Position numbers and translations under genes: made by a program
Shown: positions 175 through 20,521 of the stretch, one piece after another
Layout: the number at the start of each line of letters is the position of its first letter
Numbering within the stretch: position 1 is the stretch's first letter
Virus record (IMG/VR): IMGVR_UViG_2541047718_000009
Direction: 5' to 3' (one strand)
Source of the DNA: a virus
Taxonomy: Duplodnaviria; Heunggongvirae; Uroviricota; Caudoviricetes
Length of the DNA stretch: 24,270 nt
Notes under the pieces: generated by a model
The model's database searches: none
What the model saw: only the letters and a program-made list of their open reading frames with translations
Told to the model about the DNA's origin: nothing

Positions 175-175
175 G

Positions 176-5528: not shown

Positions 5529-6103
5529 CAAACGATGATTACATCCGTCTGTTGTCGGCGCTGCTGCCGCCCGGTCCGGCGTGGTCAGCCAGCGATCCGG
5601 CGATTGCCGGTGCGGCACCGTCATTAACTCGTGTTCATCAGCGTGCGGATGCCCTGATGCGGGAGCTGGATCCGCGCACCACCACCGAACTGATAAATCG
5701 CTGGGAGCGTCTGTGCGGCCTGCCGGATGAATGTATTCCCGCAGGGACACAGACCCTTCGCCAGCGTCAGCAACGGCTGGATGCGAAGGTTAACCTGGCG
5801 GGTGGCATCAACGAGGATTTTTATCTTGCACAGCTTGCTGCCCTGGGCAGACCAGATGCCACCATCACGCGATACGACAAAAGCACGTTCACCTGCTCAT
5901 CGGCCTGTACTGACGCGGTGAATGCGCCGGAATGGCGGTATTACTGGCAGGTCAACATGCCAACCACCACCAACACCACCTGGATGACATGTGGCGATCC
6001 CTGTGATTCCGCACTGCGTATCTGGGGTGACACCGTTGTCGAGTGTGTGCTTAACAAACTCTGCCCGTCGCATACCTACGTAATTTTTAAATATCCGGAG
6101 TAA
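5519..6103 (+). CDS. tail protein, DUF2313 / YmfQ / Mu gp48-like
   Basis: 194-aa product ([27 protein letters not shown]...) in the position directly upstream of the tail fiber gene; overlaps the J-like gene end. Confidence 0.7.
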
Positions 6104-6106
6104 TCC

Positions 6107-7057
6107 ATGCATCGTATAGACACGAAAACCGCGCAGAAGGATAAGTTCGGCGCGGGTAAGAACGGTTTTACCCGTGGTAACCCCCAGACCGGCACACCTG
6201 CCACCGATTTGGATGATGACTACTTTGACATGTTGCAGGAAGAACTTTGCAGCGTGGTGGAGGCCTCCGGTGCCAGCCTGGAGAAGGAGCGGCACGACCA
6301 GTTGCTTACCGCGCTTCGTGCGCTGCTGTTAAGCCGCAAGAATCCGTTTGGTGATATCAAATCGGACGGCACGGTGAAAACGGCTCTCGAAAATCTTGGT
6401 TTGGGAGATGGCTCCGGGAGGCTTATACAGTGTCAGGTGTTTAAAAGCTCAGGTACATACACTCCGACAAAAGGCACAAGATTTATTATTGTTGAAATTG
6501 TTGGTGGTGGTGGGGCCGGTGGTGGTTGTCAGGTCGGTTATCCCAATAATGCTGCTTGTGGTGGCGGGGGGATGTCTGGGGAGTATGTTAAAGCTCGCGT
6601 GGATAATCCAACCGTAACTACTGTGACAATAGGATATGGTGGCACTGGTGCAAGTGCGTCGGTTGGTGCTCCCGGGGGAGCAACCTCTTTCGGCAATACC
6701 ATAATTGCCAAAGGTGGTCTTGGTGGGAATGTTCTTGCTGAAGGCACTGCTCCTGGGGTTGTTGGTCCGTATGGAGCATATACTGAGCCGGGATTTACAG
6801 GTGCCAATATTATCGGGTCTGGAAGCGGTTATAGCTCACCAGGCGTTCGGTATTCCGGCAGTCTGGCGATGGGGGGGCCTGGCGGCGATTCAATCCTTGG
6901 TGCGGGGGCTGGGTCACAAGCCATTGTAGGCGAAGGTATTAATGCTAATGGCCATGGTGGTGGAGGCGGTGGTGCCTGTGTCTACGGTGGAGCGACGCAG
7001 CAGCGTGCCGGAGGTAGCGGAATGGCTGGTATTGCAATCATTTGGGAGTATGCGTGA
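6107..7057 (+). CDS. tail fiber protein: conserved N-terminal anchor region plus glycine-rich C-terminal distal domain
   Basis: ATG 6107 with GGAG 6 nt upstream. The N-terminal ~95 aa ([40 protein letters not shown]...) resemble prophage side-tail-fiber N-termini. The C-terminal two thirds are Gly-rich (GGGGAGGG..., HGGGGGGA) and the coding DNA becomes visibly more AT-rich from about 6400. Confidence 0.8.
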
Positions 7058-7452
7058 TGAACTATGCCGTTATAGAAAATGGTGTTGTTACCAATATTGC
7101 TGTATGGGATGGTGAGAGTGCCTGGCAACCAACTAATGCGTTAGTTATACCTGTATCCGATAATGTAAGAATTGGTTGGTTCTATGATAAGGGAAAGCTT
7201 TCGTCACCTACGCAGCCGCCAAAAACACATGATGAATTACTTCGTGAGGCAGAGAATGAAAGACAGTGTCTGCTGGATAGTGCTAATAGTTTAATTATGA
7301 ACTGGCAGTCAGATTTGTTACTCGGTATTATAAGTGAAAATAACAAGGGCAATCTTTTATTATGGAAGGAATATGTTAATAGTTTAATGTCAGTGGATTT
7401 ATCTTTAGTGCCAGAAATAACCTGGCCTGAAAGGCCAGAGATAATACGTTGA
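7057..7452 (+). CDS. tail fiber assembly chaperone (Tfa)
   Basis: ATGA overlap with the fiber stop at 7055-7057. The product [25 protein letters not shown]... has the typical Tfa N-terminus and size. The ORF track begins 5 codons earlier at 7042. Confidence 0.75.
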   Translation: MNYAVIENGVVTNIAVWDGESAWQPTNALVIPVSDNVRIGWFYDKGKLSSPTQPPKTHDELLREAENERQCLLDSANSLIMNWQSDLLLGIISENNKGNLLLWKEYVNSLMSVDLSLVPEITWPERPEIIR

Positions 7453-7469
7453 AATTATGTGGTGTATTA

Positions 7470-7489
7470 TTAGGGGGAGGCCCCCCTAA
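7470..7489. terminator. GC-rich hairpin between convergent tfa and acyltransferase genes (putative bidirectional terminator)
   Basis: TTAGGGGG (7470-7477), loop AGGC, CCCCCTAA (7482-7489): a perfect 8-bp stem. No clean U-tract on either side. Confidence 0.4.
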
Positions 7490-7493
7490 TAAA

Positions 7494-8519
7494 TTAGGAT
7501 GTGATTATTTTTCTGATTTTATCGTTCTTCTCCAGAAAGTGATAAGATAATGATGCCATTGCAGTATTAATAACAAAAAGTACAAGCCAGCTAAAAAGAC
7601 CATAGTTAAGAACAAATGAATTTTTATTATGATCAAGGTAATATAATATAGGTAATTGCATCAAATAAAACGAATAACTTATATCTCCAAAGTAAATGAT
7701 CGCTCTGTTTACAATATTGTTTTTGATGTTGATTTTTGCCAGGTGCAATAACATAATTGATATCGCAGGAATTGTGAGATAGTTCACCCCCATGGAGTTA
7801 TTGTTTTGCTGGGTGGTAGCATACAGAAATAATAAAATGCTTAATAGCCATGTATAATGGTTAACACGATAGCCATTTAAAAAAAGTATTGCGATACAGA
7901 CGCCCACCACAAATTCTGGTAACCTGTATATTGGAGTTGCGTAATATACGGACCAAACTACAGGTCCCTGAATTATATCAGATAATGGGATTAATAATGC
8001 TGAAGATAAATATGAAAAAAGTAAAACATAAATTACATTGTTTTTGTTGATGTTTTTTATCAAAAATGGAAATAGGGCATAAAAAAACAATTCCACTGAT
8101 ATTGACCAGGTACCGCTAAAATTCCAAAAATCGAAGGTCTGATAAATCCATGATTGCATTCCAGTAACAAACAAGAATATGCTTGCAATCATTTTTAAAA
8201 AGTTTGCATCGCTGGATAACAAAAATGGGAGGGTTAAAAGCCCACAAAATAAATAGGCTGGAAATATTCTTGCTATTCGCTTCCTGAAGTAATTGTTTGA
8301 CAAGGAACCATAGTAATTATAAGTCAAAACAAAACCAGAAAGCATGAAGAAAATACTCATGCCAATGACGCCATTGCTAATGGTTTTATTAATAAGCTCT
8401 CCAAAATTAACGGGGACTCTCATGTTAATGTGAAAAATAAACACATAAAAAGCAGCTATAAATCTTAAGATTGTTACTCCATCCATTTTTTTTCTTGTTA
8501 TGTTATTGGTACTAGTCAT
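7494..8519 (-). CDS. acyltransferase family 3 integral membrane protein (putative O-antigen / surface polysaccharide O-acetyltransferase)
   Basis: 341-aa very hydrophobic product with the family signatures: N-terminal R..H (GVTILRFIAAFYVFIFH), FFMLSGF and W-S-I-S-V-E-L-F-F-Y. The gene is strongly AT-rich relative to the flanking tail genes. Confidence 0.8.
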   Translation of the reverse strand: MTSTNNITRKKMDGVTILRFIAAFYVFIFHINMRVPVNFGELINKTISNGVIGMSIFFMLSGFVLTYNYYGSLSNNYFRKRIARIFPAYLFCGLLTLPFLLSSDANFLKMIASIFLFVTGMQSWIYQTFDFWNFSGTWSISVELFFYALFPFLIKNINKNNVIYVLLFSYLSSALLIPLSDIIQGPVVWSVYYATPIYRLPEFVVGVCIAILFLNGYRVNHYTWLLSILLFLYATTQQNNNSMGVNYLTIPAISIMLLHLAKINIKNNIVNRAIIYFGDISYSFYLMQLPILYYLDHNKNSFVLNYGLFSWLVLFVINTAMASLSYHFLEKNDKIRKIITS

Positions 8520-8715
8520 TTGAGGCTTCTCATGATTAAAAGGTTCGTTATTAAAACCATTAATAATACTCTACTTACTTATCAAGTATCAACGTTTTTA
8601 TGTGTGGTTTTAATTAACAGAATGCAAGAATAAATAATAATATTCTGTTTGCGATTTTTTAAATAATTGCACTTACTACTCCTCAGTGCGAGGGAGAATT
8701 GAGGATGGAATTGGG

Positions 8716-8858
8716 GGCTCCGTCCAAAATTTACCCCTGAATAATGGGTGTAGGCCAGGCGATTAATTGCATCAGGCGTTCCTCGCCAGAAGGTGGCGAT
8801 CATCTATGATGTTGGTATATCGACACTGTATAAGAAGTTTCCGGTCGGAGATAAATGA
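8716..8858 (+). pseudogene. remnant of a Gin/Pin/Hin-family serine DNA invertase (C-terminal HTH only; frameshifted, catalytic domain absent)
   Basis: The frame ending at TGA 8856-8858 reads ARRLIASGVPRQKVAIIYDVGISTLYKKFPVGDK, closely matching the C-terminal DNA-binding end of Gin/Pin-type invertases as I recall them (...QVALIYDVALSTLYKK...). An upstream GG-rich stretch (about 8730-8750) is recognisable only across frameshifts, and no N-terminal catalytic domain is encoded in 8520-8715. Confidence 0.65.
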
Positions 8859-8918
8859 AACCGTAGCACGTCGTATGCAAGAAGATCGTGCTGCGGTTTA
8901 TGCTTATCACTTAAAGAC

Positions 8919-9788
<870 letters not shown>

Positions 9789-10094
9789 CTAATCCTTTGA
9801 ATTTACATAGTAAAAAAAGATACTTTTCCTCATAGTGTGAATTAATTTTATGTTTCGTTTGATGATTGGACCGGTCTCGAAAACCGTAGGCACGTAGTAT
9901 GCGTTAATTTATGAGCAAACTACTTGTCTGCTGTTTTTCTGTCATTAGTCGTATATAGAATGATTCTCTATGCCTAACAAAGCATCACTAGTGCTAGATT
10001 ACGTTGTAGTCACTGTTTAAATATCCAGACAAAACATTTCCTTCTGGGTTGAATGAGTGATAGAGTTTCACCCATTAGACCCCTTGGAGGAATT

Positions 10095-11528
10095 ATGTCT
10101 GAATTTGAAGTGTTGGCACAGCATCTGCTGAAGGAAGCCGAGGCGGAAGAAAAGCTGCGACAGGAAAATGATAAAAAGCTTATCGAGAAAGTGCTGGAAA
10201 TCTATGATCAGAAGTATGTGGCTGAATTACTGAGAAAAGTCGGAAAAAATGAGTGGAGCCGTGAAACCATTAACCGCTGGATTAATGGCAAGTGTTTACC
10301 AAAATCGTTGACGTCAGTAGAAGAGTCTCTTCTGCGTAAGATGCTACCAGAACCACCTGCAAACCATCCGGAATATGCTTTCCGCTTCATTGACTTATTT
10401 GCTGGAATTGGAGGGATACGAAAAGGTTTTGAGGCTATTGGAGGCCAGTGTGTTTTTACCAGTGAATGGAATAAAGATGCTGTGCGTACATACAAGGCCA
10501 ACTGGTTTAACGATGAACAGGTGCATAAATTCAATCTCGATATTCGGGAAGTCACGTTGAGTGATAAAACCGATGTATTGGAAACGGATGCTTATGCATA
10601 TATTGATGAGCATGTGCCGGATCATGATGTGCTTCTTGCGGGGTTCCCGTGCCAGCCATTTAGTCTTGCTGGTGTTAGTAAGAAAAACTCACTTGGCCGT
10701 GCGCATGGTTTTGAATGTGAAGCACAAGGAACACTTTTTTTTGACGTGGCACGTATTATACGAGCAAAAAAACCGGCAATTTTTGTGCTGGAAAATGTCA
10801 AAAATCTGAAGAGCCATGATAAGGGTAAAACTTTCAAAGTCATTATGGAGACCCTTGACGAGCTGGGCTACGAAGTTGCCGATGCTGCAGAAATGGGAAA
10901 AAACGATCCAAAGATTATCGATGGGAAGCATTTTTTGCCTCAGCATCGTGAACGCATTGTTCTGGTCGGATTTAGACGAGATCTGAATATTCACAAGGGG
11001 TTTACCTTGCGTGATATCAGTCGTTTTTATCCGGAACACCGCCCATCATTTGGTGAATTGCTGGAGCCTGTAGTCGACAGTAAATATATACTTACGCCAA
11101 AACTATGGGAGTACCTTTATAACTACGCCAAAAAGCATGCAGCCAAGGGGAATGGTTTTGGCTTTGGGTTGGTCAATCCTGAGAATAAGGAAAGCATTGC
11201 ACGCACACTTTCTGCCAGATATCACAAAGACGGATCAGAAATTCTTATTGATCGTGGTTGGGATATGGCAACGGGAGAGGCTGACTTTATGAATGAGAGT
11301 AATCAGGCTCGTCGACCACGCAGGCTGACTCCCCGAGAGTGCGCACGCCTTATGGGATTTGAAAAACCTGGAGGGAAACCATTCCGTATTCCGGTTTCAG
11401 ATACTCAGTCATATCGGCAGTTCGGTAACTCAGTTGTGGTGCCAGTATTTGAAGCTGTTGCCAGACTTCTGGAACCCTATATCCTCAAAGCTGTTTCTGC
11501 TGATGCTGGTAAGACTGGGCAGCCTTGA
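10095..11528 (+). CDS. DNA (cytosine-5) methyltransferase, Dcm / M.EcoRII-like
   Basis: C5-MTase motifs are present: [12 protein letters not shown] (motif I), [11 protein letters not shown] (motif IV, catalytic Cys), ENVKNL (motif VI), [10 protein letters not shown] (motif X). ATG 10095 is preceded by GGAGG at 10086-10090, giving a 477-aa product; the ORF track start at 10053 lacks an RBS. Confidence 0.9.
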
Positions 11529-11534
11529 GAACAC

Positions 11535-11557
11535 CTCCCGGCCTTTTAAGCCGGGAG
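11535..11557. terminator. hairpin between convergent methyltransferase and restriction genes
   Basis: CTCCCGGC (11535-11542), loop CTTTTAA, GCCGGGAG (11550-11557). Confidence 0.4.
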
Positions 11558-11562
11558 TCAGC

Positions 11563-12777
11563 CTATGATAGTTCAGCGTAAAGCTCTATCAGCTCAGTAA
11601 TGAATGCTCCGAGCGTTATTAATTCTTCTCTAACTGCTTCTGGGTATTTTTTATGTAAAGTTGATGGTACAACGAGTCTGACACCCGCATCTTTCATTTC
11701 TCGGTATTGTGCTGAAGAAACACCTTCTTGCAGTGTAAATAAATGTACCTGATGGATTTTATCTGCTTCATTCAGTATCTGACGCCAGCGATCTTTGCAG
11801 GTGGTCTTTACTGCCAGCATACGTAAGTTTTCTACAGGAAATTCAACGTTATGATATGCCTCTGCTGAAGGAAACAGGAAATCTGGTTTTTTATTACCTT
11901 CAGTAACTGCCTGAGTGGAGAAATGCCGTAGTCCGTGCTCGATAAAAAGCTTCTCTAGGTGAAGTTCAAGTGATTTGCCTGCCCTTGATTTACGTCGATT
12001 ACTGACAGAGTTGGCTAATGCAATAAACTCATCTACAGAATCGAATCCTTTCTTAATAATATCAAGAACATGTAATTCCTCGACGAGTAGAAAAATATCA
12101 TACTCGACACGCCGACGGTCAATCAGTTGCTCATCTGGATCCTTGGAGTTTTTAGCATAATGGCCAGCAGCATATTGAATAATTTCGTTTCCAGAAGGAA
12201 AACGCTTCTTCCAGTCTTCAGGAATAACATATTTATGATTTACTGGAGTTTGCTGAAGAGATAATCCGCCCAAAATTTGTCCGGCAGGGCCGGAAATTAG
12301 GGTTCCAGGTATGATTTCGCCAATAGCAGACTCGATGATATCCTCTTCATCGGGATTGACGCAGACCCATATATCTACCTCGGAACAGTCAGTGTTCTGT
12401 TCGTTTAACCTGAAAGCAAGAATTGTGAGAGCTCCTGTATTTTCAGGGTTCTGTAATGGACTTCCTCTCCCCCAGCGCGTAATTCTTTTTTCGTTTCGGG
12501 TCTTACCAAAATAACGGTTGTTGTAATAAATTGCGCGTGCTTGGGTATCAGGGCAATCATGGGATGATACATGCGCAGTAAGGAAGACTGAAGGGTTCAG
12601 TTCGCGAGTATGATTGATAGATGGAAAAAGCTTTTCAACGATATTTGAGGGGATATAAAGTCCGACCTGATGGCCACCTGTTGCGCCAGTGTCGTTTGCA
12701 GAAAGGCGTTTGATGTAGATAAAGTAATTCCCGCTTGCGATATCAAGCAGCCAGTTATGAAAAACCGACATATACAT
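11563..12777 (-). CDS. type II restriction endonuclease, EcoRII family (CCWGG-type)
   Basis: 404-aa product whose N-terminus (MSVFHNWLL..YIKRLSANDTGATGGHQVGLYIPS) matches my recollection of R.EcoRII. It is convergent with a Dcm/M.EcoRII-like methylase. Family assignment is by recall, not a search. Confidence 0.7.
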   Translation of the reverse strand: MYMSVFHNWLLDIASGNYFIYIKRLSANDTGATGGHQVGLYIPSNIVEKLFPSINHTRELNPSVFLTAHVSSHDCPDTQARAIYYNNRYFGKTRNEKRITRWGRGSPLQNPENTGALTILAFRLNEQNTDCSEVDIWVCVNPDEEDIIESAIGEIIPGTLISGPAGQILGGLSLQQTPVNHKYVIPEDWKKRFPSGNEIIQYAAGHYAKNSKDPDEQLIDRRRVEYDIFLLVEELHVLDIIKKGFDSVDEFIALANSVSNRRKSRAGKSLELHLEKLFIEHGLRHFSTQAVTEGNKKPDFLFPSAEAYHNVEFPVENLRMLAVKTTCKDRWRQILNEADKIHQVHLFTLQEGVSSAQYREMKDAGVRLVVPSTLHKKYPEAVREELITLGAFITELIELYAELS

Positions 12778-12858
12778 CCCTTTGTTAGCATACAGTCAGG
12801 GTTAACATTTTTCCATAGTTATAGATAAGCGGCTAGGAACTTAAGGGAAAAACAAAAA

Positions 12859-12880
12859 GCCCGCATAAGCGGGCTTTTGT
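12859..12880. terminator. bidirectional rho-independent terminator candidate
   Basis: GCCCGC (12859-12864), loop ATAA, GCGGGC (12869-12874), followed by TTTTGTG on the + strand and preceded by AAAAA (a U-tract on the - strand). A second perfect 14-nt palindrome GGAGCCGCGGCTCC follows at about 12889-12902. Confidence 0.5.
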
Positions 12881-13005
12881 GTCACTCGGGAGCCGCGGCT
12901 CCTTTGCGTATCCTTTTTTGTCTCCTCACCGTCTGGTCGGTGTCCTGCTGAGACTGCTAACTTCCTGTTTTTGTTGGTGTTGTCCTTACACCGTCCAATC
13001 ATGAT

Positions 13006-13028
13006 TGGTGGAGCTGGCGGAGTTTGAA
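13006..13028. repeat. distal att site of the P4-like element (direct repeat of the ssrA 3' end)
   Basis: TGGTGGAGCTGGCGG at 13006-13020 is identical to 23869-23883 (complement of the tmRNA 3' terminus ...CCGCCAGCUCCACCA), with AGTTTGAA versus GAGTTGAA continuing the similarity. A 14-nt perfect palindrome CCAATCATGATTGG overlaps its left edge (12995-13008). Confidence 0.7.
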
Positions 13029-13162
13029 TAAATATTGTATTGCTTTGATTTTTAATGATTTTATTTAATTTAGTTTTTGTGCGTATACTTAATCGTATAC
13101 CAATGGCTGTAAGTTAATGTGAAATGAAAGCGCATTTTTACTTGGATTGATGCTATATCGTA

Positions 13163-13468
13163 CAGGAAAAAAATTTTTTTTCGAAAGAACTGTTCACACT
13201 GTTCACCTTTCTTTTTTCTCCTTTTATTTCAGAGTGATAGGTGGTGAATAATGGGTGAAGGGTGAACATTCGATTCTTCACCTCCGGCATTCTGCCGGTG
13301 TGACTCATACCGGTGATTAATCCCCCGTACTGAAATCACTCAGGAAGAAAAAAGTTTTTTTTGATTTGATTGTTCACACTGTTCACCTTTCGTTTTTCTC
13401 TTTTAATTTCAGTATGATAACGGGTGAATATACGGTGAAGGGTGAACACTGGATTGTTCACCTTCGGG
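13163..13468. repeat. crr-like cis replication region: two ~125-bp direct repeats carrying TGTTCACC / GGTGAACA iterons
   Basis: Unit 1 is about 13163-13286 and unit 2 about 13343-13468, period 180 bp. Exact octamers TGTTCACC occur at 13200-13207, 13380-13387 and 13455-13462, and GGTGAACA at 13261-13268 and 13441-13448, with further one-mismatch variants. Located immediately 3' of the alpha gene, as in P4. Confidence 0.75.
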
Positions 13469-13480
13469 GGATGTCGGGAT

Positions 13481-13506
13481 AAAAAAAAGACCGGCAGATG
13501 CCGGTC
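13481..13506 (-). terminator. rho-independent terminator after alpha
   Basis: On the minus strand: hairpin GACCGGCATCTGCCGGTC (13489-13506) followed by eight U (13481-13488), 8 nt after the alpha stop codon. Confidence 0.7.
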
Positions 13507-13513
13507 AGGTGGG

Positions 13514-15847
13514 TCAGGTTGTTGCAGGGGCGTCACATTTTGGCAGCCAGTCGCCGTAGCTTTCCTCTTTCAGCGTCAGGTTGGTCTGTATCCCCTGTTT
13601 GGTATGGCGCTTCTCGTAATTCAGCCCGTATTCTTTCAGCATCACCGGTAGCCCCAGTCCGAACATTTTCAGACTGAGTACATTCCGGTAGCCGTTTGCC
13701 TCCATGTAGGCCAGATAGGCGTGATAGAGGTATTTACGGTAATTACGCGGGATGATACTGGCGTTCCCCATATACATGCCGCTGGTCTGCGGCAGGGTTT
13801 CCAGATAGCCGATAAAATCAAACGTCGGGTCGGCATCCCGTTTGATGTTCAGTGCCTCGTCTGAGTTCTGCTGGGACTGAAGCAGTGACCGGGCGAGCAT
13901 CGGGTCGCTGAACTTCTGCATCAGGTGACGCACGATGACCGCCAGCTCGCGGGTGATTTTGTCCTTAAGCTGCGGGTCGCGCTCCTGCGGGGCTATCTGT
14001 TCCGGGAAGTGAATAATCACCCGCCGGCGTGACACGCCGCCGCTGCGGTCGGTGAAGCGCATCGGGTTATTGTTCACGGCCAGAATCACCGCCGGGATGT
14101 GCGTGGAGTACGCATCCCGGTATTTCGGGTCAACGGACACTGCATCGCCGCCGGTGATGGCCTTGAGTCCGGCTCCGTCGCCGCTCCATTTTTCCTGGTC
14201 CGGCAGGCGTATCAGTGAGAAGCCAGTTAACGCGGCACGTTCACGCGGGGATTCCAGCGTCTCAATGGTGGCCGACGTGGCGTTATCCTCACCGGCCAGC
14301 AGGGTGGCTATTTCGGCCATGATACTTTTGCCGCTGCCGCCGGGACCGGTCACCTCCAGAAAGAGCTGCCAGTCGTAGCGGTTTGCCAGCACCATAAACA
14401 GTGCGGCCAGAATCACGTCGCGTTTTTCCGCACGACCACCGGCAGCACGGTCAAGCCAGCGCCAGAACGCGGGAGCGTGGGTTTCCAGCGTTTCACCGTC
14501 CACCGGCGGGGTGAAATCCACATCACACAGGGTACGCATCCAGTGTGACGGACTGTGCGGGTGGAACGTACCGTTCTGCGTGTCGAGCACGCCGTTACGA
14601 AAGCCAATCAGGCGGCGGGAGGGGGCTTCCTGCTGCGGAATAATCAGCTTCAGGGTGTCCACCACGGAGGCCACCTTCCCGGAGGAGAACGGCGCGCGCA
14701 GACGCTGAAACAGCCCGGCCACATCCCGGGCAAAGTCCTGTGGCGGCAGCACCTTCCAGACACCATTTTCATAGCGGGACAGAAGCTGGCCGTTGGCATC
14801 GACCGCGAGCGCCTCGCCGTAATGCTCATAGATACGCATGGCCTTTTCGCTGGTACTCATGGCGGAAAACTCCGCTTCGCTCATGGTGTCGAACGGGCTT
14901 TCAGCCGGTGGCCGGATGGCATCATAAATGGCCTTACGGGTGGCTTCCCCGCCGTACTGCGTGAAGGCATCATTCCAGTCACCGAAGACCGGCGGCAGGG
15001 CAACAACACCTTCACACGCATCTGCGGCTGCGGCGGCTTTTTTCTGGCCGTCACCGCTGAGGTCACGGTCAGCAGCAAGGACAATCTGACAGGCCGGATG
15101 CTTCTGCCGGGCAAGGCTGGACAGAGAAAGGAGATTCACGGAAGAAAGCGCCACCATCACCGTTTCACCGGTCAGGTGATGCACGGTAAGTGCGGTCGCG
15201 TATCCCTCCGCTATCCACAGACGTTTTCCGGCCTGATTCTGTCCTTCAAGGGTGTGACAGGTGCCCCTGACCTGTCCGCCTTTCAGGGTGCGCTTACGGC
15301 CGTCAGCACTGATTAACTGAAGGTTAACCAGTTCGCCGCTGTCGTCATACAGTGGCACCACAAGGTCACCAGCACGCCAGCTCACGCCACCGGCTCTGTG
15401 TGTGCCGGTCAGCATCCGGCATTCCCGGCCGGGAAAGCCCTTGCGGGTCAGGTAGGCGTTACCGGTTCCGGGACGGGTTTTCGCTATCAGGGTTTGTGCC
15501 AGTGCGGCGGCGTTCTTCCGGGCAGCGTCTGTTTCAGCACCGGCGGCGGCCGTCACTGCCGGGTCAGCCGGGGGCAGGCTGCCGGTCACGGCAGCCACCT
15601 TTGCGGCCGCGTCGGACGGGGAGACACCAAACACCTTTTCAACCAGTTTCAGGCCGTCACCGGCACCACACTGATTGCAGTACCAGGTGCCGCGCCCCTC
15701 CCTGTCATCAAAACGGAAGCGGTCACTCCCGCCACAGACCGGACAGGGCTGATGACGGTTTTTCAGCACCTGAATCCCCAGCGCCGGGAGAATACGCGGC
15801 CAGTGGCCGAGCGCATGGCTGACGGTGGCGGTTACGTTCATTTTCAT
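13514..15847 (-). CDS. alpha: P4 alpha-type primase-helicase (replication initiator)
   Basis: 777-aa product with an N-terminal zinc-binding CPVCGG...CNQCG motif and a primase/D5-type helicase arrangement; I recall P4 alpha as about the same length. AAGGAG lies 9 nt upstream of ATG 15847. Flanked by iteron regions. Confidence 0.85.
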   Translation of the reverse strand: MKMNVTATVSHALGHWPRILPALGIQVLKNRHQPCPVCGGSDRFRFDDREGRGTWYCNQCGAGDGLKLVEKVFGVSPSDAAAKVAAVTGSLPPADPAVTAAAGAETDAARKNAAALAQTLIAKTRPGTGNAYLTRKGFPGRECRMLTGTHRAGGVSWRAGDLVVPLYDDSGELVNLQLISADGRKRTLKGGQVRGTCHTLEGQNQAGKRLWIAEGYATALTVHHLTGETVMVALSSVNLLSLSSLARQKHPACQIVLAADRDLSGDGQKKAAAAADACEGVVALPPVFGDWNDAFTQYGGEATRKAIYDAIRPPAESPFDTMSEAEFSAMSTSEKAMRIYEHYGEALAVDANGQLLSRYENGVWKVLPPQDFARDVAGLFQRLRAPFSSGKVASVVDTLKLIIPQQEAPSRRLIGFRNGVLDTQNGTFHPHSPSHWMRTLCDVDFTPPVDGETLETHAPAFWRWLDRAAGGRAEKRDVILAALFMVLANRYDWQLFLEVTGPGGSGKSIMAEIATLLAGEDNATSATIETLESPRERAALTGFSLIRLPDQEKWSGDGAGLKAITGGDAVSVDPKYRDAYSTHIPAVILAVNNNPMRFTDRSGGVSRRRVIIHFPEQIAPQERDPQLKDKITRELAVIVRHLMQKFSDPMLARSLLQSQQNSDEALNIKRDADPTFDFIGYLETLPQTSGMYMGNASIIPRNYRKYLYHAYLAYMEANGYRNVLSLKMFGLGLPVMLKEYGLNYEKRHTKQGIQTNLTLKEESYGDWLPKCDAPATT

Positions 15848-15861
15848 GGTGTTGTTCTCCT

Positions 15862-16182
15862 TCAGTGCAGTACCGGCGCTTTTATGTGACGGGCACAGAG
15901 TTCATCCATCACAACCAGCCCGAGAAAGGACAGCGACGGCGCGGCCTTCAGGGGGCCGGATTCCATTAAATCTTCCAGCAGGGCACAGGCTATCTGACGC
16001 CCTTTTTCCTCACCGTGCTGGCGCAGATAAAAGCCTTCCAGCTCAGCGGCGATGGCCGCCTCCAGTGATTCAAGGGTGAGATGCGGGTAGCGGTGCTGAC
16101 GTTCGCACACGGTCAGCCAGGCACAGGCGACAGCACGACGGTAAAGGGCTGCGCGTAAGACGGGCGGTAAGGGTGTTTTCAT
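15862..16182 (-). CDS. hypothetical protein of the P4-like left operon (106 aa)
   Basis: GGAGG 6 nt upstream of ATG 16182; stop lies 14 nt before the alpha start. Function unknown. Confidence 0.6.
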
Positions 16183-16317
16183 TTGCTTTCCTCCCTGTGA
16201 CAGATGACTGCATTCCGTGCCGGTTGCATTAACTGATAAGGCATATCTGCGTCTCCTGAAGACGTGCGTATCCCTGCGCGAATACGCACATTTAATTTTT
16301 CGGGTGTCGTTTTTTAA

Positions 16318-16773
16318 TTACAGATAATTGCGGTAACTGTTATCCGGGGTGGTTTCCGGGTCAGGCTCCGTGCGGGGAATTTCCCGCCATTCCCGCGCCA
16401 CCGGTGCCGCCCGGCTGACCGGAACAGGGGCCTGCGGGTAAATATCCAGATATTTCTCCCGCCATTTCTGTAATTCCGGGTCTCCGGCCATTTCTTTCAG
16501 TACCGCATGCCGGTTTACGGGGCTGCGTTTAAACAGGTCAGGACGGTCACAGGTAAATTCCCGCAGAAAACGCCCCAGCGGGATGTCTGTGGTGCGCCCG
16601 TCAGCGAGGATACGCACAAGGATACTGAATTTACGGCGGTACGGGTTCCAGACAATGTCCGGGCAGCGGTACGGCATTTCCCACGGAATACCGTCTTCCA
16701 GAATGCCGACCACGGCCACATCGGGAAAACCGGCAGAACGGTAAATCTCACCGGGCTGGGGAAAATCAAACAT
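16318..16773 (-). CDS. hypothetical protein of the P4-like left operon (151 aa; P4 orf151-like by position and size)
   Basis: GGGGAG RBS upstream of ATG 16773; overlaps the stop of the upstream small gene. Confidence 0.6.
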   Translation of the reverse strand: MFDFPQPGEIYRSAGFPDVAVVGILEDGIPWEMPYRCPDIVWNPYRRKFSILVRILADGRTTDIPLGRFLREFTCDRPDLFKRSPVNRHAVLKEMAGDPELQKWREKYLDIYPQAPVPVSRAAPVAREWREIPRTEPDPETTPDNSYRNYL

Positions 16774-17053
16774 GCGTCCTGTCTCCCCGGTCTTTCTGCT
16801 GGGCGAGAAAATCGCGGCACAGGCCTTTGGCTTTCAGCTCATTCAGCACAAAATCAATATCTTCATTCAGGTAGCTGAAAATATGCGGAATGTAGAGCTG
16901 ATGCAGGCCGGAGAGTTCACGGTGAATCAAATCCCCCCCAACAAACTGGGATACGGCGCTGGCGCGGTTGAGCTTATGGTAAGCCTCAATGCTGAGGTGT
17001 TCACGGGCGTCATGACGTGCTGAGACGGTCTGAGGGGCTTTTTTATTACGCAC
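16766..17053 (-). CDS. small left-operon protein (95 aa), possible epsilon-like derepressor (assigned by position only)
   Basis: GTG 17053 is preceded by GGAGG with 6-nt spacing. The longer ORF-track version (to 17209) adds a Cys/Pro-rich N-terminus without an RBS and is judged spurious. Confidence 0.4.
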
Positions 17054-17243
17054 GGGACACCTCCACCACCGGCAGACGGGCAGCAAGGGAGAGCACATAG
17101 TCACGGACAAGGGAACGGCGGGCACTGCGTTCATCACCGGCGACGGTGCGAAGCATACAGATACGGGGATGACGGTCTGCGCGACGGACAGCCGCAAACA
17201 CAAAGACAAATTCAGGGTGTGAAGGGGTAAGGGTTGTAGCCAT
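17046..17243 (-). CDS. small protein (65 aa), unknown function
   Basis: ATG 17243 is preceded by GGAGG at 8-nt spacing; its stop overlaps the start of the 95-aa gene, suggesting coupling. It is the C-terminal part of ORF-track entry 17046..17690, whose upstream portion lacks support. Confidence 0.4.
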
Positions 17244-17641
17244 GATGGCAGCCTCCGTTAGATAGCAGGTTACGCTATCGCCGGAGTTTCCACGCTCGAT
17301 GGCGATAGCCCAGACGGGGGTGGAAATACCGGCTCTAACGGATACCGGCCAGCCCGGAGGCTGCCCCGCCTGAGCTACCATTGACTCTGCGGCATAATGA
17401 GCGGACGCGGGCAGGATGCACGGAGTGCCATCTGCTCGACTGACCACACACCACACCATAATCTGGCGCTCTGTGGCGTTGATTGCGACACAAAAAAAGA
17501 CGCATGGCGCGTCATATGTCGCCGTTAGATTGCTCGGGTTTCCACGCCCGGCTGCCGATTTTGCGACAGCGGAAAAACTATATCCGCAAATGCCGGAAAA
17601 AGGCAAGCCAGAAAAAGGGACTTTTTGCAGAACAGGCATCA

Positions 17642-17908
17642 TCATGCGTCGTACCCCCGTTTGCGTCCGGCAATGCGTCCGGCCATCCATGCGGTGACTT
17701 CAGAGTGCAGCCAGGCCACATTTTTACCGCCAAGACTCACCTGCGGCGGAAATTCCCCCTTACGGATGAGTTCGTAGATGGTCGAGCGTGACAGGCCGCA
17801 CAGGTGCATCACTTCCGGCAGACGTAAAAAACGCTCCTGCGTGATGTCCGGCAGCGGCATCAGTGGCGTCACAGGGGCGGGAGACGGGGAAGAAAAAACA
17901 GCTTGCAT
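17642..17908 (-). CDS. vis: AlpA / P4 Vis-family small HTH regulator (excision and transcription control)
   Basis: 88-aa product with the AlpA-type signature [54 protein letters not shown] 7 nt upstream. First gene of the leftward operon next to ori. Confidence 0.75.
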
Positions 17909-18188
17909 CGGGCTACCTCGTTAATGTCCATACAGCACCGGATAAGTCCGTCCGGCTTCGGGTAGCGCTTTATTTTGTGAATATTTTCAGCAGACGCAAC
18001 AGGGGGGATTTGTTCCGGCAGCCTTACAATGGCTGTGCATTTTTTTGTACATCAGCGCCAGATAGCTTTAAAACGCTCTGGAAGGAGCTGGAAAAAATTA
18101 TAGTGAAATACAAATTGTTTTTTCTTATTTATTTCAGTGAATTAATAAAAATAAAAAGTAATAAACAGCACAAAAAGCCCATCAACGG

Positions 18189-18291
18189 GTGAACAGTGGT
18201 GAACAGACGGTGAACAGTCATTACTGCGATTGTTCACCCTTTAACTTACTGTATTACTTATCTTTTTTATTAAGGTGAACAGAGGTGAACA
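18189..18291. promoter_or_regulatory. P4-type origin of replication (ori): iteron cluster around an AT-rich spacer
   Basis: GGTGAACA at 18189-18196, 18198-18205, 18209-18216, 18274-18281 and 18284-18291; TGTTCACC at 18231-18238; AT-rich stretch at 18240-18273. About 4.9 kb from the crr repeats, consistent with my recollection of P4 ori-crr spacing of about 4.5 kb. Confidence 0.75.
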
Positions 18292-18370
18292 GTAAAATAT
18301 AAAAAAACAAACAGTAAGCCGGTTTTTCCTGCGACCTTTTCCTGGCTTGCCGGTCTGAGGATGAGTCTCC

Positions 18371-18388
18371 TGTGTCAGGGCTGGCACA
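18371..18388 (+). promoter_or_regulatory. late-promoter activator site (TGT-N12-ACA dyad) upstream of sid
   Basis: TGT (18371-18373), 12 nt, ACA (18386-18388), centred about 80 nt upstream of the sid ATG. This matches the Ogr/Delta-dependent late promoter architecture of P2/P4. Confidence 0.55.
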
Positions 18389-18460
18389 TCTGCAATGCGT
18401 CGTGTTGTTGTCCGGTGTACGTCACAATTTTCTTAACCTGAAGTGACGAGGAGCCGGAAA

Positions 18461-19195
18461 ATGTCTGACAACACCATCCCTGAATATCTGCAACCCGCAC
18501 TGGCACAACTGGAAAAGGCCAGAGTCGCTCATCTTGAGAACGCCCGCCTGATGGATGAGACCGTCACGGCCATTGAACGGGCAGAGCAGGAAAAAAATGC
18601 GCTGGCGCAGGCCGACGGAAACGACGCTGACGACTGGCGCACGGCCTTTCGTGCAGCCGGTGGTGTCCTGAGCGACGAGCTGAAACAGCGCCACATTGAG
18701 CGCGTGGCACGCCGGGAGCTGGTACAGGAATATGACAATCTGGCCGTGGTGCTGAATTTTGAACGCGAACGCCTGAAAGGGGCGTGTGACAGCACGGCCA
18801 CCGCCTACCGGAAGGCACATCATCACCTTCTGAGTCTGTATGCAGAGCATGAGCTGGAACACGCCCTGAATGAAACCTGTGAGGCGCTTGTCCGGGCAAT
18901 GCATCTGAGCATCCTGGTACAGGAAAATCCGCTCGCCAACACCACCGGCCATCAGGGCTACGTCGCGCCGGAAAAGGCTGTCATGCAGCAGGTGAAATCA
19001 TCGCTGGAACAGAAAATAAAACAGATGCAAATCAGCCTCACCGGCGAGCCGGTTCTCCGGCTGACCGGACTGTCAGCGGCAACACTCCCGCACATGGATT
19101 ATGAGGTGGCAGGCACACCGGCACAGCGCAAGGTGTGGCAGGACAAAATAGACCAGCAGGGAGCAGAGCTTAAGGCCAGAGGGCTGCTGTCATGA
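18461..19195 (+). CDS. sid: Sid, capsid size-determination external scaffold protein
   Basis: 244-aa product from ATG 18461 (GAGGAG 7 nt upstream), MSDNTIPEYLQPALAQLEKA..., which I recognise as P4 Sid. The ORF track begins 6 codons earlier. Confidence 0.85.
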   Translation: MSDNTIPEYLQPALAQLEKARVAHLENARLMDETVTAIERAEQEKNALAQADGNDADDWRTAFRAAGGVLSDELKQRHIERVARRELVQEYDNLAVVLNFERERLKGACDSTATAYRKAHHHLLSLYAEHELEHALNETCEALVRAMHLSILVQENPLANTTGHQGYVAPEKAVMQQVKSSLEQKIKQMQISLTGEPVLRLTGLSAATLPHMDYEVAGTPAQRKVWQDKIDQQGAELKARGLLS

Positions 19196-19692
19196 TTTAC
19201 TGTCCGTCGTGTGGACATGTTGCTCACACCCGTCGCGCACATTTCATGGACGATGGCACCAAGATAATGATTGCACAGTGCCGGAATATTTATTGCTCTG
19301 CGACATTTGAAGCGAGTGAAAGCTTTTTCTCTGACTGTAAAGATTCAGGAATGGAATACATTTCAGGCAAACAGAGATACCGCGATTCACTGACGTCAGC
19401 CTCCGGCAGTATGAAACGCCCGAAAAGAATGCTTGTTACCGGATATTGTTGTCGGAGATGTAAAGGCCTTGCACTGTCAAGAACATCGCGGCGTCTGTCT
19501 CAGGAAGTCACCGAGCGTTTTTATGTGTGCACGGATCCGGGCTGTGGTCTGGTGTTTAAAACGCTTCAGACCATCAACCGCTTCATTGTCCGCCCGGTCA
19601 CGCCGGACGAACTGGCAGAACGCCTGCATGAAAAACAGGAACTGCCGCCAGTACGCTTAAAAACACAATCATATTCGCTGCGTCTGGAATGA
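19192..19692 (+). CDS. delta: Delta, Ogr-family zinc-finger late transcription activator (tandem Ogr-like halves)
   Basis: 166-aa product with two CxxC...C...C units (MIYCPSCGHVAHTRR...CRNIYCSATF and ...CRRCKG...CTDPGCGLVF). ATGA overlap with the sid stop. Confidence 0.85.
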   Translation: MIYCPSCGHVAHTRRAHFMDDGTKIMIAQCRNIYCSATFEASESFFSDCKDSGMEYISGKQRYRDSLTSASGSMKRPKRMLVTGYCCRRCKGLALSRTSRRLSQEVTERFYVCTDPGCGLVFKTLQTINRFIVRPVTPDELAERLHEKQELPPVRLKTQSYSLRLE

Positions 19693-19765
19693 GGGCTGCC
19701 GGTTAACACCGGCCGTCGCCGCACACCGTATTTTTATTCTTCAGCATGATGAGAAAGAGATAACG

Positions 19766-20338
19766 ATGGAAAGCACAGCCTTACAGCAGGCCTTTGACAC
19801 CTGTCAGAATAACAAAGCGGCATGGCTGCAACGCAAAAATGAGCTGGCAGCGGCCGAACAGGAATATCTGCGGCTTCTGTCAGGAGAAGGCAGAAACGTC
19901 AGTCGCCTGGACGAATTACGCAATATTATCGAAGTCAGAAAATGGCAGGTGAATCAGGCCGCCGGTCGTTATATTCGTTCGCATGAAGCCGTTCAGCACA
20001 TCAGCATCCGCGACCGGCTGAATGATTTTATGCAGCAGCACGGCACAGCACTGGCGGCGGCACTGGCACCGGAGCTGATGGGCTACAGTGAGCTGACGGC
20101 CATTGCCCGAAACTGTGCCATACAGCGTGCCACAGATGCCCTGCGTGAAGCCCTTCTGTCCTGGCTTGCGAAGGGGGAAAAAATTAATTATTCCGCACAG
20201 GATAGCGACATTTTAACGACCATCGGATTCAGGCCTGACGCGGCTTCGGTGGATGACAGCCGTGAAAAATTCACTCCTGCGCAGAACATGATTTTTTCGC
20301 GTAAAAGTGCACAACTGGCATCACGTCAGTCTGTGTAA
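19766..20338 (+). CDS. psu: Psu, polarity suppression / capsid decoration protein
   Basis: 190-aa product in the third position of the sid-delta-psu operon, with size and sequence style of P4 Psu. Confidence 0.8.
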   Translation: MESTALQQAFDTCQNNKAAWLQRKNELAAAEQEYLRLLSGEGRNVSRLDELRNIIEVRKWQVNQAAGRYIRSHEAVQHISIRDRLNDFMQQHGTALAAALAPELMGYSELTAIARNCAIQRATDALREALLSWLAKGEKINYSAQDSDILTTIGFRPDAASVDDSREKFTPAQNMIFSRKSAQLASRQSV

Positions 20339-20374
20339 AATTCCCCGAAAATCCGCCCGTTTTTACTGAAAAAA

Positions 20375-20402
20375 GCCATGCATCGATAAGGTGCATGGCT
20401 TT
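20375..20402 (+). terminator. terminator hairpin after psu
   Basis: GCCATGCA (20375-20382), 9-nt loop, TGCATGGC (20392-20399), then TTT; lies 37 nt after the psu stop. Confidence 0.55.
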
Positions 20403-20502
20403 GCATGCGTTTTCCTGCCTCATTTTCTGCAGACCGCACCATTCCCGGCGCGGTCTGAGCGTGTCAGTGCAACTGCATTAAAACCGCCCCGCAAAGCGGG
20501 CG

Positions 20503-20521
20503 GGCGAGGCGGGGAAAGCAC
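20503..20521. other. cos site (P2/P4-type 19-nt cohesive-end sequence)
   Basis: GGCGAGGCGGGGAAAGCAC at 20503-20521 matches the P2/P4 cohesive-end sequence as I recall it, and lies between psu and the int-proximal cargo as in P4. Confidence 0.7.

Follow-up and report, generated by a model that had tools for sequence, protein, structure and literature searches.

A second copy of the 3′ end of ssrA, the tmRNA gene, lies in the middle of the 24,270-nt stretch of DNA analysed here (the window), and it raises the question of whether one integrated element or two occupy this locus. The original prediction took the copy for an att boundary between a P4-like element and a second, older element sharing the ssrA site, and drew attention to a palindrome that overlaps it. 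The gene itself is encoded on the minus strand at 23869-24231 (ARAGORN; Rfam RF00023, 295.8 bits), and on the plus strand its 3′ end reads TGGTGGAGCTGGCGGGAGTTGAACC from position 23869. The sequence TGGTGGAGCTGGCGG at 13006-13020, seen within the window letters 12990-13029 (...ACCGTCCAATCATGATTGGTGGAGCTGGCGGAGTTTGAAT...), is a copy of the ssrA 3′ end at 23869-23883; it agrees at 15 of 15 bases and in orientation, and the exact 15-mer occurs in the window at 13006 and 23869 alone, where it had been predicted. The accompanying argument that an exact 15-mer is too long to arise by chance in 24 kb fails as a general rule: the window has five further families of exact repeats at least 15 nt long, three of which are isolated pairs (1901/6992, 4848/18656 and 5487/19835), and simulated windows contain a mean of 0.38 repeated 15-mers. 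The repeat is nevertheless significant because its sequence, the tmRNA 3′ terminus, was specified in advance. For this 15-mer with up to two mismatches, 0.04 matches are expected, and two matches were reached in 0 of 100 shuffles. Past the 15-mer, a gapped likeness continues (AGTT-TGAA versus GAGTT-GAA), by which the satellite arm imitates the tmRNA T-loop.

Genomes that lack one of the two neighbours establish what the repeat separates. The strains IAI39, CE10, and N32 carry positions 1-13005 joined straight to ssrA, as two pieces with 99.9-100% identity, and the P4-like genes are absent; across this unoccupied site IAI39 reads ...CCAATCATGATTGGTGGAGCTGGCGGGAGTTGAACC..., which equals the predicted attB. 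In ECC-1470, the P4-like element starts exactly at 13006 going right, and its left neighbour is a different integrase island. In strain H7, the order is satellite, then a 155-nt block discussed below, then ypjA. The same junction, with the 15-mer intact, was found in MCJCHV-1 and at least 40 further genomes. The predicted boundary at the distal ssrA copy is thus exact to the base, and the restriction-modification (R-M) system, GIY-YIG gene, acyltransferase, and tail module do lie outside the P4-like element, as satellite-free strains carry 1-13005 alone. Since each occurs without the other, the R-M/tail region and the P4-like genes come and go independently, the opposite of excision as a single unit. 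The whole 24-kb arrangement is found in five genomes, which could be taken to mean that it is one composite element with the 15-mer as an internal or chance repeat; this candidate is refuted by the comparative genomes, in which either part is seen alone with junctions exact to the base, and it also sits badly with the expected count of 0.04 and with a left part that has no integrase and is cut by an insertion sequence (IS). We give it practically no credence.

A further ssrA 3′-end repeat had been anticipated to the left, beyond the window, and one does exist in degenerate form 5.6 kb away; past this third att remnant, adjoining ypjB, is a candidate ancestral ssrA terminator. The locus has at least three recognisable layers and a degenerate outermost remnant, and the window very probably shows two of the several layers in which integrative elements are stacked at the E. 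coli tmRNA 3′ end, namely, a decayed older prophage and a later P4-like satellite. Tandem arrays at tRNA and tmRNA genes, which are built by successive integrations, carry displaced 3′-end fragments, and have the newest element beside the gene, have been described before (Williams 2003, as cited in PMC10107115; for the general mechanism, bioRxiv 10.1101/2020.11.02.365908). The tandem arrangement at ssrA does not differ from them in kind and is nothing new in that respect; the structured trailer block is the only item that is possibly new.

The element between the two att junctions is an intact P4-like satellite at 13021-23868, as judged from Pfam and Rfam matches, an exact cos match, iterons, and empty-site strains. 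Its distal att junction is the displaced former ssrA 3′ end (13006-13020, minus strand), and the identity block of its proximal junction (23869-23883) is inside ssrA. From left to right, it contains crr-like alpha iterons (13200-13462), the alpha primase-helicase (13514-15847, minus), the C4 (CI) RNA (17298-17385, minus) and isrK (17493-17570, minus), both found with Rfam, an AlpA-type HTH protein (17642-17908, minus), ori-like iterons (18188-18291), a sid-like gene (18443-19195), delta (19192-19692), psu (19766-20338), cos (20503-20521, an exact 19-mer match), a DEAD/ResIII helicase as cargo (20657-22465), and a 410 aa IntA-type integrase (22497-23729, minus) with Arm-DNA-bind_3, Phage_int_M, and Phage_integrase domains. 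A DUF5375 protein, an epsilon/Derepression protein, and an Icd/Ash protein are also encoded. The sid-like gene has no Pfam match and is named by its position and by the RefSeq label “glycoprotein 3” in strain H7. The motif TGTTCACC is present in 11 copies in two clusters, five at 13200-13462 and six at 18188-18291, with 0.94 copies expected per window. The integrase ORF lies 139 nt from the ssrA 3′ end. In between, at 23805-23868 (minus strand), a terminator-like hairpin and a T-run mark the trailer and terminator that ssrA now takes from the satellite; IAI39 does not have this stretch after ssrA.

By Pfam and Rfam, alpha, epsilon, the CI (C4) RNA, sid, delta, psu, and the integrase follow the P4 order, and the arrangement int, cargo hotspot, cos, psu-delta-sid, CI RNA, epsilon, alpha, crr is shared with P4 and the P4-like satellites of Enterobacterales. 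The exact P2/P4 cos 19-mer, the TGTTCACC iterons, and a variable defence cargo beside int are shared with P4-like satellites, and in MCJCHV-1 the cargo slot adjoining int holds a different gene. P4 itself integrates in a leucine tRNA gene; unlike P4, the satellite described here uses ssrA with an IntA-type integrase. In target gene and identity block it is the same as the cryptic prophage CP4-57 of K-12, which likewise has an AlpA-type regulator and whose integrase, IntA, is 61% identical. The distal junction of CP4-57 consists of TGGTGG(A)GCTGGCGG and an AGTYTGAAT arm, adjoining the same 155-nt block and palindrome as in our window. The gene sets differ, with a complete P4-like satellite here that has alpha, sid, delta, psu, and cos.

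For an excised satellite, the predicted attP junction is ...GAAGAGCAAG-TGGTGGAGCTGGCGG-AGTTTGAATAAAT..., and the predicted restored attB is ...CCAATCATGAT-TGGTGGAGCTGGCGGGAGTTGAACC.... The circular attP junction was not found among viral contigs with an exact 30-mer or among metagenomes with a 29-mer, and a synthetic 265-nt satellite attP retrieved no circular form from all complete E. coli replicons; matches at ~86% coverage were tandem arrays like that of ECC-1470. Absence from these collections is weak evidence. Because no circular attP was found, the present mobility of the satellite is judged from the occupied/empty-site polymorphism and the intact gene set, and on these grounds the satellite is probably mobile.

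To the left of the boundary, 215-13005 is the right end of an SfV-like prophage truncated by an IS3-family element. The end of that insertion sequence (1-214) interrupts the prophage in its tape-measure gene, as RefSeq annotates it in AR_0013 and IAI39, where the stretch is identical, and strains without the IS match the window from position 215 onward only. A tail module on the plus strand follows at 215-7452, assigned with Pfam: a tape-measure C-terminal fragment, a DNA-circularisation protein, a Mu gp44/45/46/47/48-type baseplate, a tail fibre, and a tail-fibre assembly protein. Positions 215-6400 have 97-98% DNA identity to the serotype-converting Shigella phages SfI, SfII, SfV, and SfIV across tail and baseplate. 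These Shigella phages have gtr genes, and their integration site is a tRNA gene. Both they and the remnant place cargo between tail fibres and att; unlike the Sf phages, the remnant has as its cargo an acyltransferase, a GIY-YIG protein, and an R-M pair of EcoRII type, and it uses an ssrA att module. The acyltransferase (7494-8519, minus; Acyl_transf_3, Pfam PF01757, 2.6e-26), a moron, would by its position occupy the slot of the O-antigen-modification genes in SfV-type phages. Next is a decayed C-terminal fragment of a Pin-type DNA invertase (8715-8858, plus), a pseudogene in RefSeq whose translation ends ...RRLIASGVPRQKVAIIYDVGISTLYKKFPVGDK and which has in-frame stops upstream; strain 2015C-3163 has an intact pinE at this position. 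The GIY-YIG protein (8919-9743, minus; Pfam LEM-3_GIY-YIG; PADLOC PD-T4-3, 2.7e-140) is defence cargo, and the R-M pair consists of a C5 cytosine methyltransferase (10053-11528, plus; Pfam; PADLOC MTase_II) and an EcoRII-like endonuclease (11563-12777, minus; Pfam; PADLOC REase_II).

Among O103-type strains there are near-complete relatives of this prophage, with ssrA at one end and a 32-nt ssrA copy at the distal end. In 2015C-3163, the order is ssrA, 235 nt, R-M, GIY-YIG, pinE, tail, head, early genes, integrase, ParA, and the 32-nt ssrA copy, which has one phage-type mismatch. These relatives keep both the integrase and the distal att copy that are lost here; there is no integrase left of 13005 and no second copy of the ~155-nt block. 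The remnant is immobile because its LLS-type integrase and distal att went with the IS3-associated truncation, and it is older than the satellite because it lies distal to it and because the IS3 truncation is already present in satellite-free strains. A second, older element that shares ssrA, as originally proposed, is borne out by the SfV-like right end, by the relatives spanning ssrA to the distal 32-nt copy, and by an attP of this family that is contiguous in a circular 44.6-kb phage and in phage LLS. For annotation, the probably mobile satellite is thereby delimited at 13021-23868 and set apart from the prophage remnant, which is immobile and in which the R-M, GIY-YIG, and acyltransferase genes have become fixed cargo.

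The stretch between the R-M pair and the repeat is where the two elements and the host gene meet. On the minus strand, 12851-13005 forms the P′ arm of the older phage’s attP and a phage-supplied ssrA trailer, with five hairpins and, at its end, an intrinsic terminator (12855-12878, by terminator scan). In the circular 44.6-kb replicon pZ1323HEC0010-3, which carries the same integrase as the 2015C-3163 relative, and in the free phage LLS (PQ299149), terminator, ~155-nt block, palindrome, and 29-32 nt of ssrA are contiguous, and window positions 12851-13020 align with both attP sequences. The LLS record has an annotated tmRNA pseudogene and attP, and its integrase shares 85% identity with that of the complete relatives of the older prophage. 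Phage LLS is expected to integrate at the ssrA 3′ end (PMC12315714). LLS is lambdoid with lambda-like siphovirus head and tail genes, whereas the remnant has an SfV/Mu-type contractile-tail module, so that only the integration module is common to the two, a case of mosaicism.

Of 5426 E. coli genomes, 4170 (77%) have the block, which, taken alone, could hint at native chromosome, and in K-12 and H7 it lies between the pseudo-ssrA end and the core-like ypjA, with the R-M/tail genes absent. This position beside ypjA prompted a model in which 12851-13005, palindrome included, is the chromosomal ssrA trailer and terminator and the R-M/tail prophage inserted separately just downstream without sharing the ssrA att. 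The model was dropped on the evidence of the circular phage and LLS, where the block continues without a break into 29-32 nt of the ssrA 3′ end and an integrase-side arm, and of the 32-nt ssrA copy with its phage-type mismatch in which the near-complete prophage of 2015C-3163 ends distally. The logic of a tandem array would moreover put the native trailer at the distal end of the stack, away from ssrA, where the terminator adjoining ypjB past the third att remnant is the better ancestral candidate, and the K-12 order of block, ypjA, and pinH fits a still older phage of the same family with ypjA in its cargo slot. We consider a native origin of the block very improbable.

As a phage-supplied sequence, the block behaves like a structured RNA. 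Its fold has a z-score of -3.7, and across 70 distinct variants 95.6% of cells are paired versus 35-47% in slid controls; double-change cells number 84 versus 30 in shuffles, and G.U pairs are confined to the ssrA-sense (minus) strand. As a trailer with structure and covariation, the P′ arm took the place of the trailer and terminator of ssrA. Parts of the block recur with other att modules: in the prfC-type phage Ayreon and at a further locus, L215. An Rfam search of 12700-13500 at a permissive E-value returned sub-threshold, terminator-driven matches only, and no family fits the block. In a GTDB scan with a 17-mer from the block, nearly all of the matches listed are chance matches in high-GC genomes, and the relevant ones among those listed are only Klebsiella indica, a Raoultella MAG, E. 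albertii, and two others.

The history that very probably lies behind the two layers is as follows. An SfV-like temperate phage with an LLS-type tyrosine integrase, whose N-terminal domain is Arm-DNA-bind_2, entered ssrA by means of an attP containing 29-32 nt of the ssrA 3′ end, flanked on one side by the ~155-nt structured, terminator-ended block. Given such an attP, integration exchanged the final ~30 nt of the gene, along with trailer and terminator, for phage copies, and it set the cargo end of the phage (R-M, GIY-YIG, pin, acyltransferase, and tail fibres) beside ssrA. The prophage then decayed, and all that lay left of the tape-measure gene, the integrase and distal att among it, was lost to an IS3-family element. 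Later, a P4-like satellite with an IntA/P4-type integrase recombined with ssrA within the 15-bp identity block, moving the former ssrA 3′ end (13006-13020) and the older arm 10.8 kb away and giving ssrA its own 15 nt, trailer, and terminator. At such a locus, an important host RNA gene gets its final 15-30 nt, its trailer, and its terminator from whichever element came last.

In the lysogen, the block would terminate ssrA transcription, and in the free phage it lies across attP from the int operon, the position of sib/tI in lambda. There, too, a structured, terminator-ended RNA lies across attP from the int operon and is parted from int by integration, and RNase III processes it in read-through transcripts; the likeness is positional only, the two have no sequence similarity, and the block additionally becomes the trailer of a host RNA gene. 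It is possible, though we hold it somewhat unlikely, that the block is a functional phage-borne RNA module, which after integration would provide the host tmRNA precursor with its 3′ trailer and terminator and in the free phage would act downstream of the int operon as a sib-like retroregulator, with the palindrome pairing the tmRNA CCA end into the first hairpin.

The palindrome itself, CCAATCATGATTGG, is a perfect 14-nt palindrome at 12995-13008, exact and unique in the window, and overlaps the repeat as described in the original prediction. On the ssrA strand, its first half is made up of the CCA end of tmRNA and AUCA, and its second half is UGAUUGG, the 7 nt with which the conserved block begins. 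Its length is not statistically unusual: the window has four perfect palindromes of at least 14 nt against 1.65 ± 1.27 expected, and 9% of simulations reach four. Three of the four fall within 12889-13180. The whole stretch 12885-13008 is at least 90% conserved, and the palindrome is no more conserved than the surrounding ~120 nt. It is invariant in ~100 attP and att variants, some of which have divergent host ssrA ends. In two contexts away from ssrA, the block keeps one palindrome half only, UGAUUGG. Since the attP of the circular phage and of LLS is contiguous through the palindrome, it lies in the P′ arm of the older phage, and the suggestion that it is part of the older element’s own att holds for its location. 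The alternative suggestion of an integrase arm or host-factor site does not hold for the P4-like element, because the palindrome is on the bacterial side of that element’s junction and is absent from the ECC-1470 junction; it joins a CCA end and AUCA to UGAUUGG and has no part in satellite recombination.

For the role of the palindrome in the older phage, our best guess, offered tentatively and with less than even confidence, is the first hairpin of the trailer RNA that the phage supplies; because it is nearly invariant, this hairpin is without covariation support. That same want of compensatory change in the helix would be expected of a functionless by-product, formed when the tmRNA CCA end and four bases were joined to a block starting with UGAUUGG and kept by descent. 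Palindromes of this length are common (four in the window versus 1.65 expected), the four extra bases AUCA suffice to complete it, and the variants sampled are closely related; on the other hand, AUCA is invariant although the adjacent hairpin 2 and the host ssrA end vary, and three of the window’s four long palindromes cluster near the junction. We think such a by-product somewhat improbable. An accessory site at the DNA level, at which the older attP would bind dimeric Xis, IHF, Fis, or integrase about two helical turns from the T-loop crossover, seems to us slightly more doubtful. The palindrome is in the P′ arm beside the core, where lambda has H′, its dyad is perfect and invariant in the ~100 variants, and the LLS-type integrase has an arm-binding domain. 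The attP of pZ1323 moreover contains a 12-nt direct repeat, CGTATCCTTTTT, in both arms, which may point to arm-type sites in the block; the LLS attP repeats a different segment, and no arm-type repeats common to the LLS and pZ1323 attP were found. In contrast, the palindrome fits the IHF consensus WATCAANNNNTTR poorly by inspection, its conservation is no higher than that of the whole 120-nt block, half of it is retained in blocks on other att modules, and the parts of the block next to it covary as RNA does and have G.U pairs on one strand only, unlike DNA half-sites.

One base in the displaced copy bears on what excision of the satellite would do to the host. Position 13012 is A, the complement of tmRNA U357, and is intact in the window, so that the distal copy of the satellite keeps U357, unlike psaA of K-12 (the CP4-57 attR). 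The U357-deleted allele, TGGTGGGCTGGCGG, is present in K-12 psaA (see also PMC10107115), AR_0013, and H7, and in K-12 the distal copy without U357 means that CP4-57 excision inactivates tmRNA (PMC10107115). CP4-57 excision carries the U357 deletion over from attR into ssrA, and on this basis the crossover of the satellite can be placed, by homology with CP4-57, probably in GCTGGCGG (13013-13020). Excision here would be predicted to restore a wild-type ssrA 3′ end. A single base thus sets the outcome of excision: with 13012 intact, a functional tmRNA would result, and with the base deleted, as in the K-12-type copy, AR_0013, and H7, a defective one.

The 15-mer at 13006-13020, an exact copy of the ssrA 3' end, was originally predicted to mark the boundary of two tandem elements, and this finding is correct, well localised and already known in kind. 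From 12990 the window reads ACCGTCCAATCATGATTGGTGGAGCTGGCGGAGTTTGAAT; ssrA itself lies on the minus strand at 23869-24231 (ARAGORN and Rfam), and the plus-strand reading of its 3' end from 23869 is TGGTGGAGCTGGCGGGAGTTGAACC. The copy is confirmed, and the window holds exactly two exact copies, at 13006 and 23869 and in the same orientation, where 0.04 matches with at most two mismatches would be expected. The accompanying argument that 15 nt is far too long for chance in 24 kb does not hold in general, as there are five other exact repeat families of at least 15 nt in the window (mean in simulated windows, 0.38), but it does hold for this repeat, which is significant because its sequence is the tmRNA terminus, specified beforehand. 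Three isolated direct repeats of 15-16 nt between unrelated genes (1901/6992, 4848/18656 and 5487/19835) are probably chance matches, given that simulated mean per window. All components of the locus are of known kinds. Tandem islands at ssrA have been described (Williams 2003, as cited in PMC10107115), and so have CP4-57 and psaA, P4-like satellites whose defence cargo varies, the attP of LLS, and SfV-type phages.

By sequence comparison, the window's two halves are independent units, since each was found without the other. In IAI39, CE10 and N32, positions 1-13005 are fused straight to ssrA (...CCAATCATGATTGGTGGAGCTGGCGGGAGTTGAACC...) at 99.9-100% identity and the P4-like genes are absent. 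In ECC-1470, the P4-like element begins exactly at 13006 and follows another island, which carries a P4-type integrase of its own. These junctions bear out a boundary at 13006, and the separation of the halves among related ssrA loci is the opposite of the R-M and tail region excising jointly with the P4-like genes. The distal junction also occurs with other left flanks in MCJCHV-1 and at least 40 other genomes; strain H7 has the P4-like element, then 12851-13005, then full-length ypjA; and the full length of the window is matched by E. coli AR_0013, with a one-base difference inside the repeat. In about 30 complete genomes, e.g., ECC-1470 (retrieved locus L004:7800-8060), the satellite's distal junction adjoins the integrase-proximal trailer of another P4-type-integrase island, about 86% identical to the satellite's own trailer. 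In these genomes, IntA-type islands form true tandem arrays.

The distal element (215-13005), per Pfam, encodes a tape-measure fragment, a DNA-circularisation protein, a Mu gp44-48-type baseplate, a tail fibre and a tail-fibre assembly protein, along with an acyltransferase, a GIY-YIG protein (PD-T4-3 by PADLOC) and an EcoRII-type R-M pair. Shigella phages SfI, SfII, SfV and SfIV match its tail module at 97-98% identity, and at 8715-8858 there is a remnant of a Pin invertase, which has in-frame stops. An IS3-family element cuts the prophage at 214/215, and no integrase was found in 215-13005. The att-proximal cargo (7494-12777) comprises the acyltransferase, in the O-antigen-modification slot, the Pin remnant, the GIY-YIG gene and the R-M pair; O103-type relatives have an intact pinE and an invertible tail-fibre segment where the acyltransferase stands here.

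The conserved block at 12851-13005 is found in 77% of E. coli genomes and adjoins ypjA in K-12 and H7, and it therefore first looked like the native ssrA trailer. That reading is overturned by a prophage in 2015C-3163, the circular 44.6-kb replicon pZ1323HEC0010-3 and phage LLS. The 2015C-3163 prophage is a near-complete relative of the distal element, running ssrA, 235 nt, R-M, GIY-YIG, pinE, tail, head, lysis, early genes, integrase and ParA; its far end is a 32-nt ssrA copy with one phage-type mismatch, adjoining another island's integrase. The replicon pZ1323HEC0010-3 has the same integrase and left arm, and because terminator, block, CCAATCATGAT, TGGTGGAGCTGGCGGGAGTTGAACCAGCGTCC and P arm are contiguous in this circle, they constitute an attP. 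In LLS, whose integrase is 85% identical, the same block runs directly into what is annotated as a tmRNA pseudogene and attP, and the LLS authors infer that the phage integrates at the 3' end of ssrA (PMC12315714). Together these relatives identify the block, on sequence grounds, as the P' arm of the phage, and the window's left half as what remains of an ssrA-integrating prophage. Two facts make this prophage the older element: it is distal to the satellite, and strains that have no satellite already show its IS3 truncation. The predicted assignment of the R-M and tail region to a second, older element at ssrA thus gains support. The LLS-type integrase (Arm-DNA-bind_2) shares 24% local identity with the satellite integrase, and their subfamilies are unrelated. 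A 12-nt direct repeat, CGTATCCTTTTT, in both arms of the pZ1323HEC0010-3 attP (L009:8887-8898 and 9082-9093; the first is window 12908-12919) is a candidate arm-type integrase site; LLS repeats a different segment, GTCCTGCTGAGAC, with one mismatch.

The block is the sole element that might deserve follow-up. By folding (z-score -3.7) and a terminator scan, the ssrA-sense transcript of 12840-13020 is predicted to form five hairpins and a terminator. Across 70 distinct variants, 95.6% of cells had a standard pair (slid-partner control, 35-47%) and 84 cells were changed on both sides (shuffle control, 30). Hairpin 2 shows GC/AU and AU/UA/CG exchanges, while hairpins 3 and 5 and the terminator have G.U pairs valid on the ssrA-sense strand only. 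No Rfam family matches the block. Our best guess is that the phage supplies ssrA with this block as a putative trailer and terminator. In the free phage, the block lies across attP from the int operon, a putative, positional likeness to lambda sib/tI that is likewise a best guess.

The palindrome CCAATCATGATTGG at 12995-13008, for which the original prediction offered three roles, is exact and unique in the window. Nevertheless, a 14-nt perfect palindrome is ordinary in such a window (four of at least 14 nt vs 1.65 expected). The palindrome is not part of the satellite's att site, because it falls on the bacterial side of that element's junction and the junction in ECC-1470 lacks it. Read on the ssrA strand, it joins CCA+AUCA, the tmRNA CCA end plus four bases, to UGAUUGG, the conserved block's first seven bases; Ayreon, with a prfC-type att, and the retrieved locus L215 have the UGAUUGG half only. 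It shows essentially no variation across about 100 att variants, among them some whose host ssrA ends differ, as would suit a protein-binding site, a live alternative; the whole 12885-13008 stretch is equally conserved, and a palindrome without any role is a live alternative as well. Its helix shows zero variation among the 70 distinct variants, so pairing is neither supported nor contradicted. Between these readings, we would take the palindrome, as a best guess, for the first hairpin of the putative phage-supplied trailer. Three of the four long palindromes (12889-12902, 12995-13008 and 13167-13180) fall inside a 300-nt stretch around the att junction; of these, GGAGCCGCGGCTCC corresponds to hairpin 4 in the trailer, with compensatory UA and G.U variants, and AAAAAAATTTTTTT is located in the satellite arm. 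About 120 nt of the block also occur in non-ssrA contexts, namely the prfC-type attP of Ayreon (L010:4001-4107) and directly upstream of an ORF in L215 (3130-3270), so the block is a mosaic module that travels independently of the ssrA core; both copies end inside the palindrome.

The proximal element (13021-23868) is a complete P4-like satellite, and it supplies the trailer and terminator now serving ssrA. Its integrase (Arm-DNA-bind_3, Phage_int_M and catalytic domains) is 61% identical to K-12 IntA, and it carries psu, a delta/ogr zinc-finger protein, an ORF at the sid position, an AlpA-type regulator, isrK and C4 (CI) RNAs, Icd/Ash, epsilon ("Derepression") and DUF5375 proteins, and an alpha primase-helicase. 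An exact P2/P4 cos 19-mer lies at 20503-20521 and the alpha-binding octamer TGTTCACC forms two clusters (13200-13462 and 18188-18291), both identified against P2/P4 consensus sequences. Exact direct repeats of 21 nt (13191-13211/13371-13391) and 15 nt (13254-13268/13434-13448), spaced 180 nt apart, hold the octamer and thus form a crr-like region; the iteron cluster at 18188-18291 is ori-like. A DEAD/ResIII helicase (20657-22465), with weak PADLOC matches to PbeA and type IV restriction enzymes, fills the cargo slot between cos and int, which in MCJCHV-1 (L131:21678-24419) is occupied by a 2.7-kb "restriction endonuclease"; such differing cargo fits the known P4 defence hotspot. Exactly 15 bp are common to attB, attL and attR, and the satellite arm right of the distal copy (AGTTTGAAT) is an imperfect mimic of the T-loop. 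In K-12, CP4-57 excision transfers the U357 deletion from attR to ssrA (PMC10107115), and by homology the satellite probably crosses over within GCTGGCGG (13013-13020), to the gene-body side of U357.

The complement of U357, window position 13012, is present in the window and deleted in AR_0013, H7 and K-12 psaA. The K-12 deletion makes CP4-57 excision inactivate tmRNA (PMC10107115); satellite excision from this window would give back a wild-type ssrA end. The 70-nt junction had no match at 100% among complete RefSeq E. coli genomes. In IMG/VR loci L011-L130, displaced ssrA ends beside IntA-type arms have 1-, 3-, 4- or 5-nt deletions within TGGTGGAGC, which suggests either that mutations concentrate there or that defective distal copies are selected for.

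In K-12, CP4-57 is followed by psaA (TGGTGGGCTGGCGG), by the same block with its palindrome, and then by ypjA and a remnant of pinH. This order would fit an even older phage of the distal element's family that had ypjA as its cargo. The third ssrA repeat that had been suggested further left is present, in decayed form, beyond pinH, between ypjB/ypjCB and the pinH remnant. The K-12 (L005:30469-30482, minus) and H7 (L003:2660-2673) copies read TGGTGGGCTGGCAG, and the one in AR_0013 (L001:6413-6426), 5.59 kb to the left of where the window starts, reads TGATGAGTTTGCGG. On the right, the remnant is flanked by sequence about 65-70% identical to the CP4-57 arm (by eye, about 60 aligned nt), and the hairpin and T-run on its left are a good candidate for the ancestral ssrA terminator.
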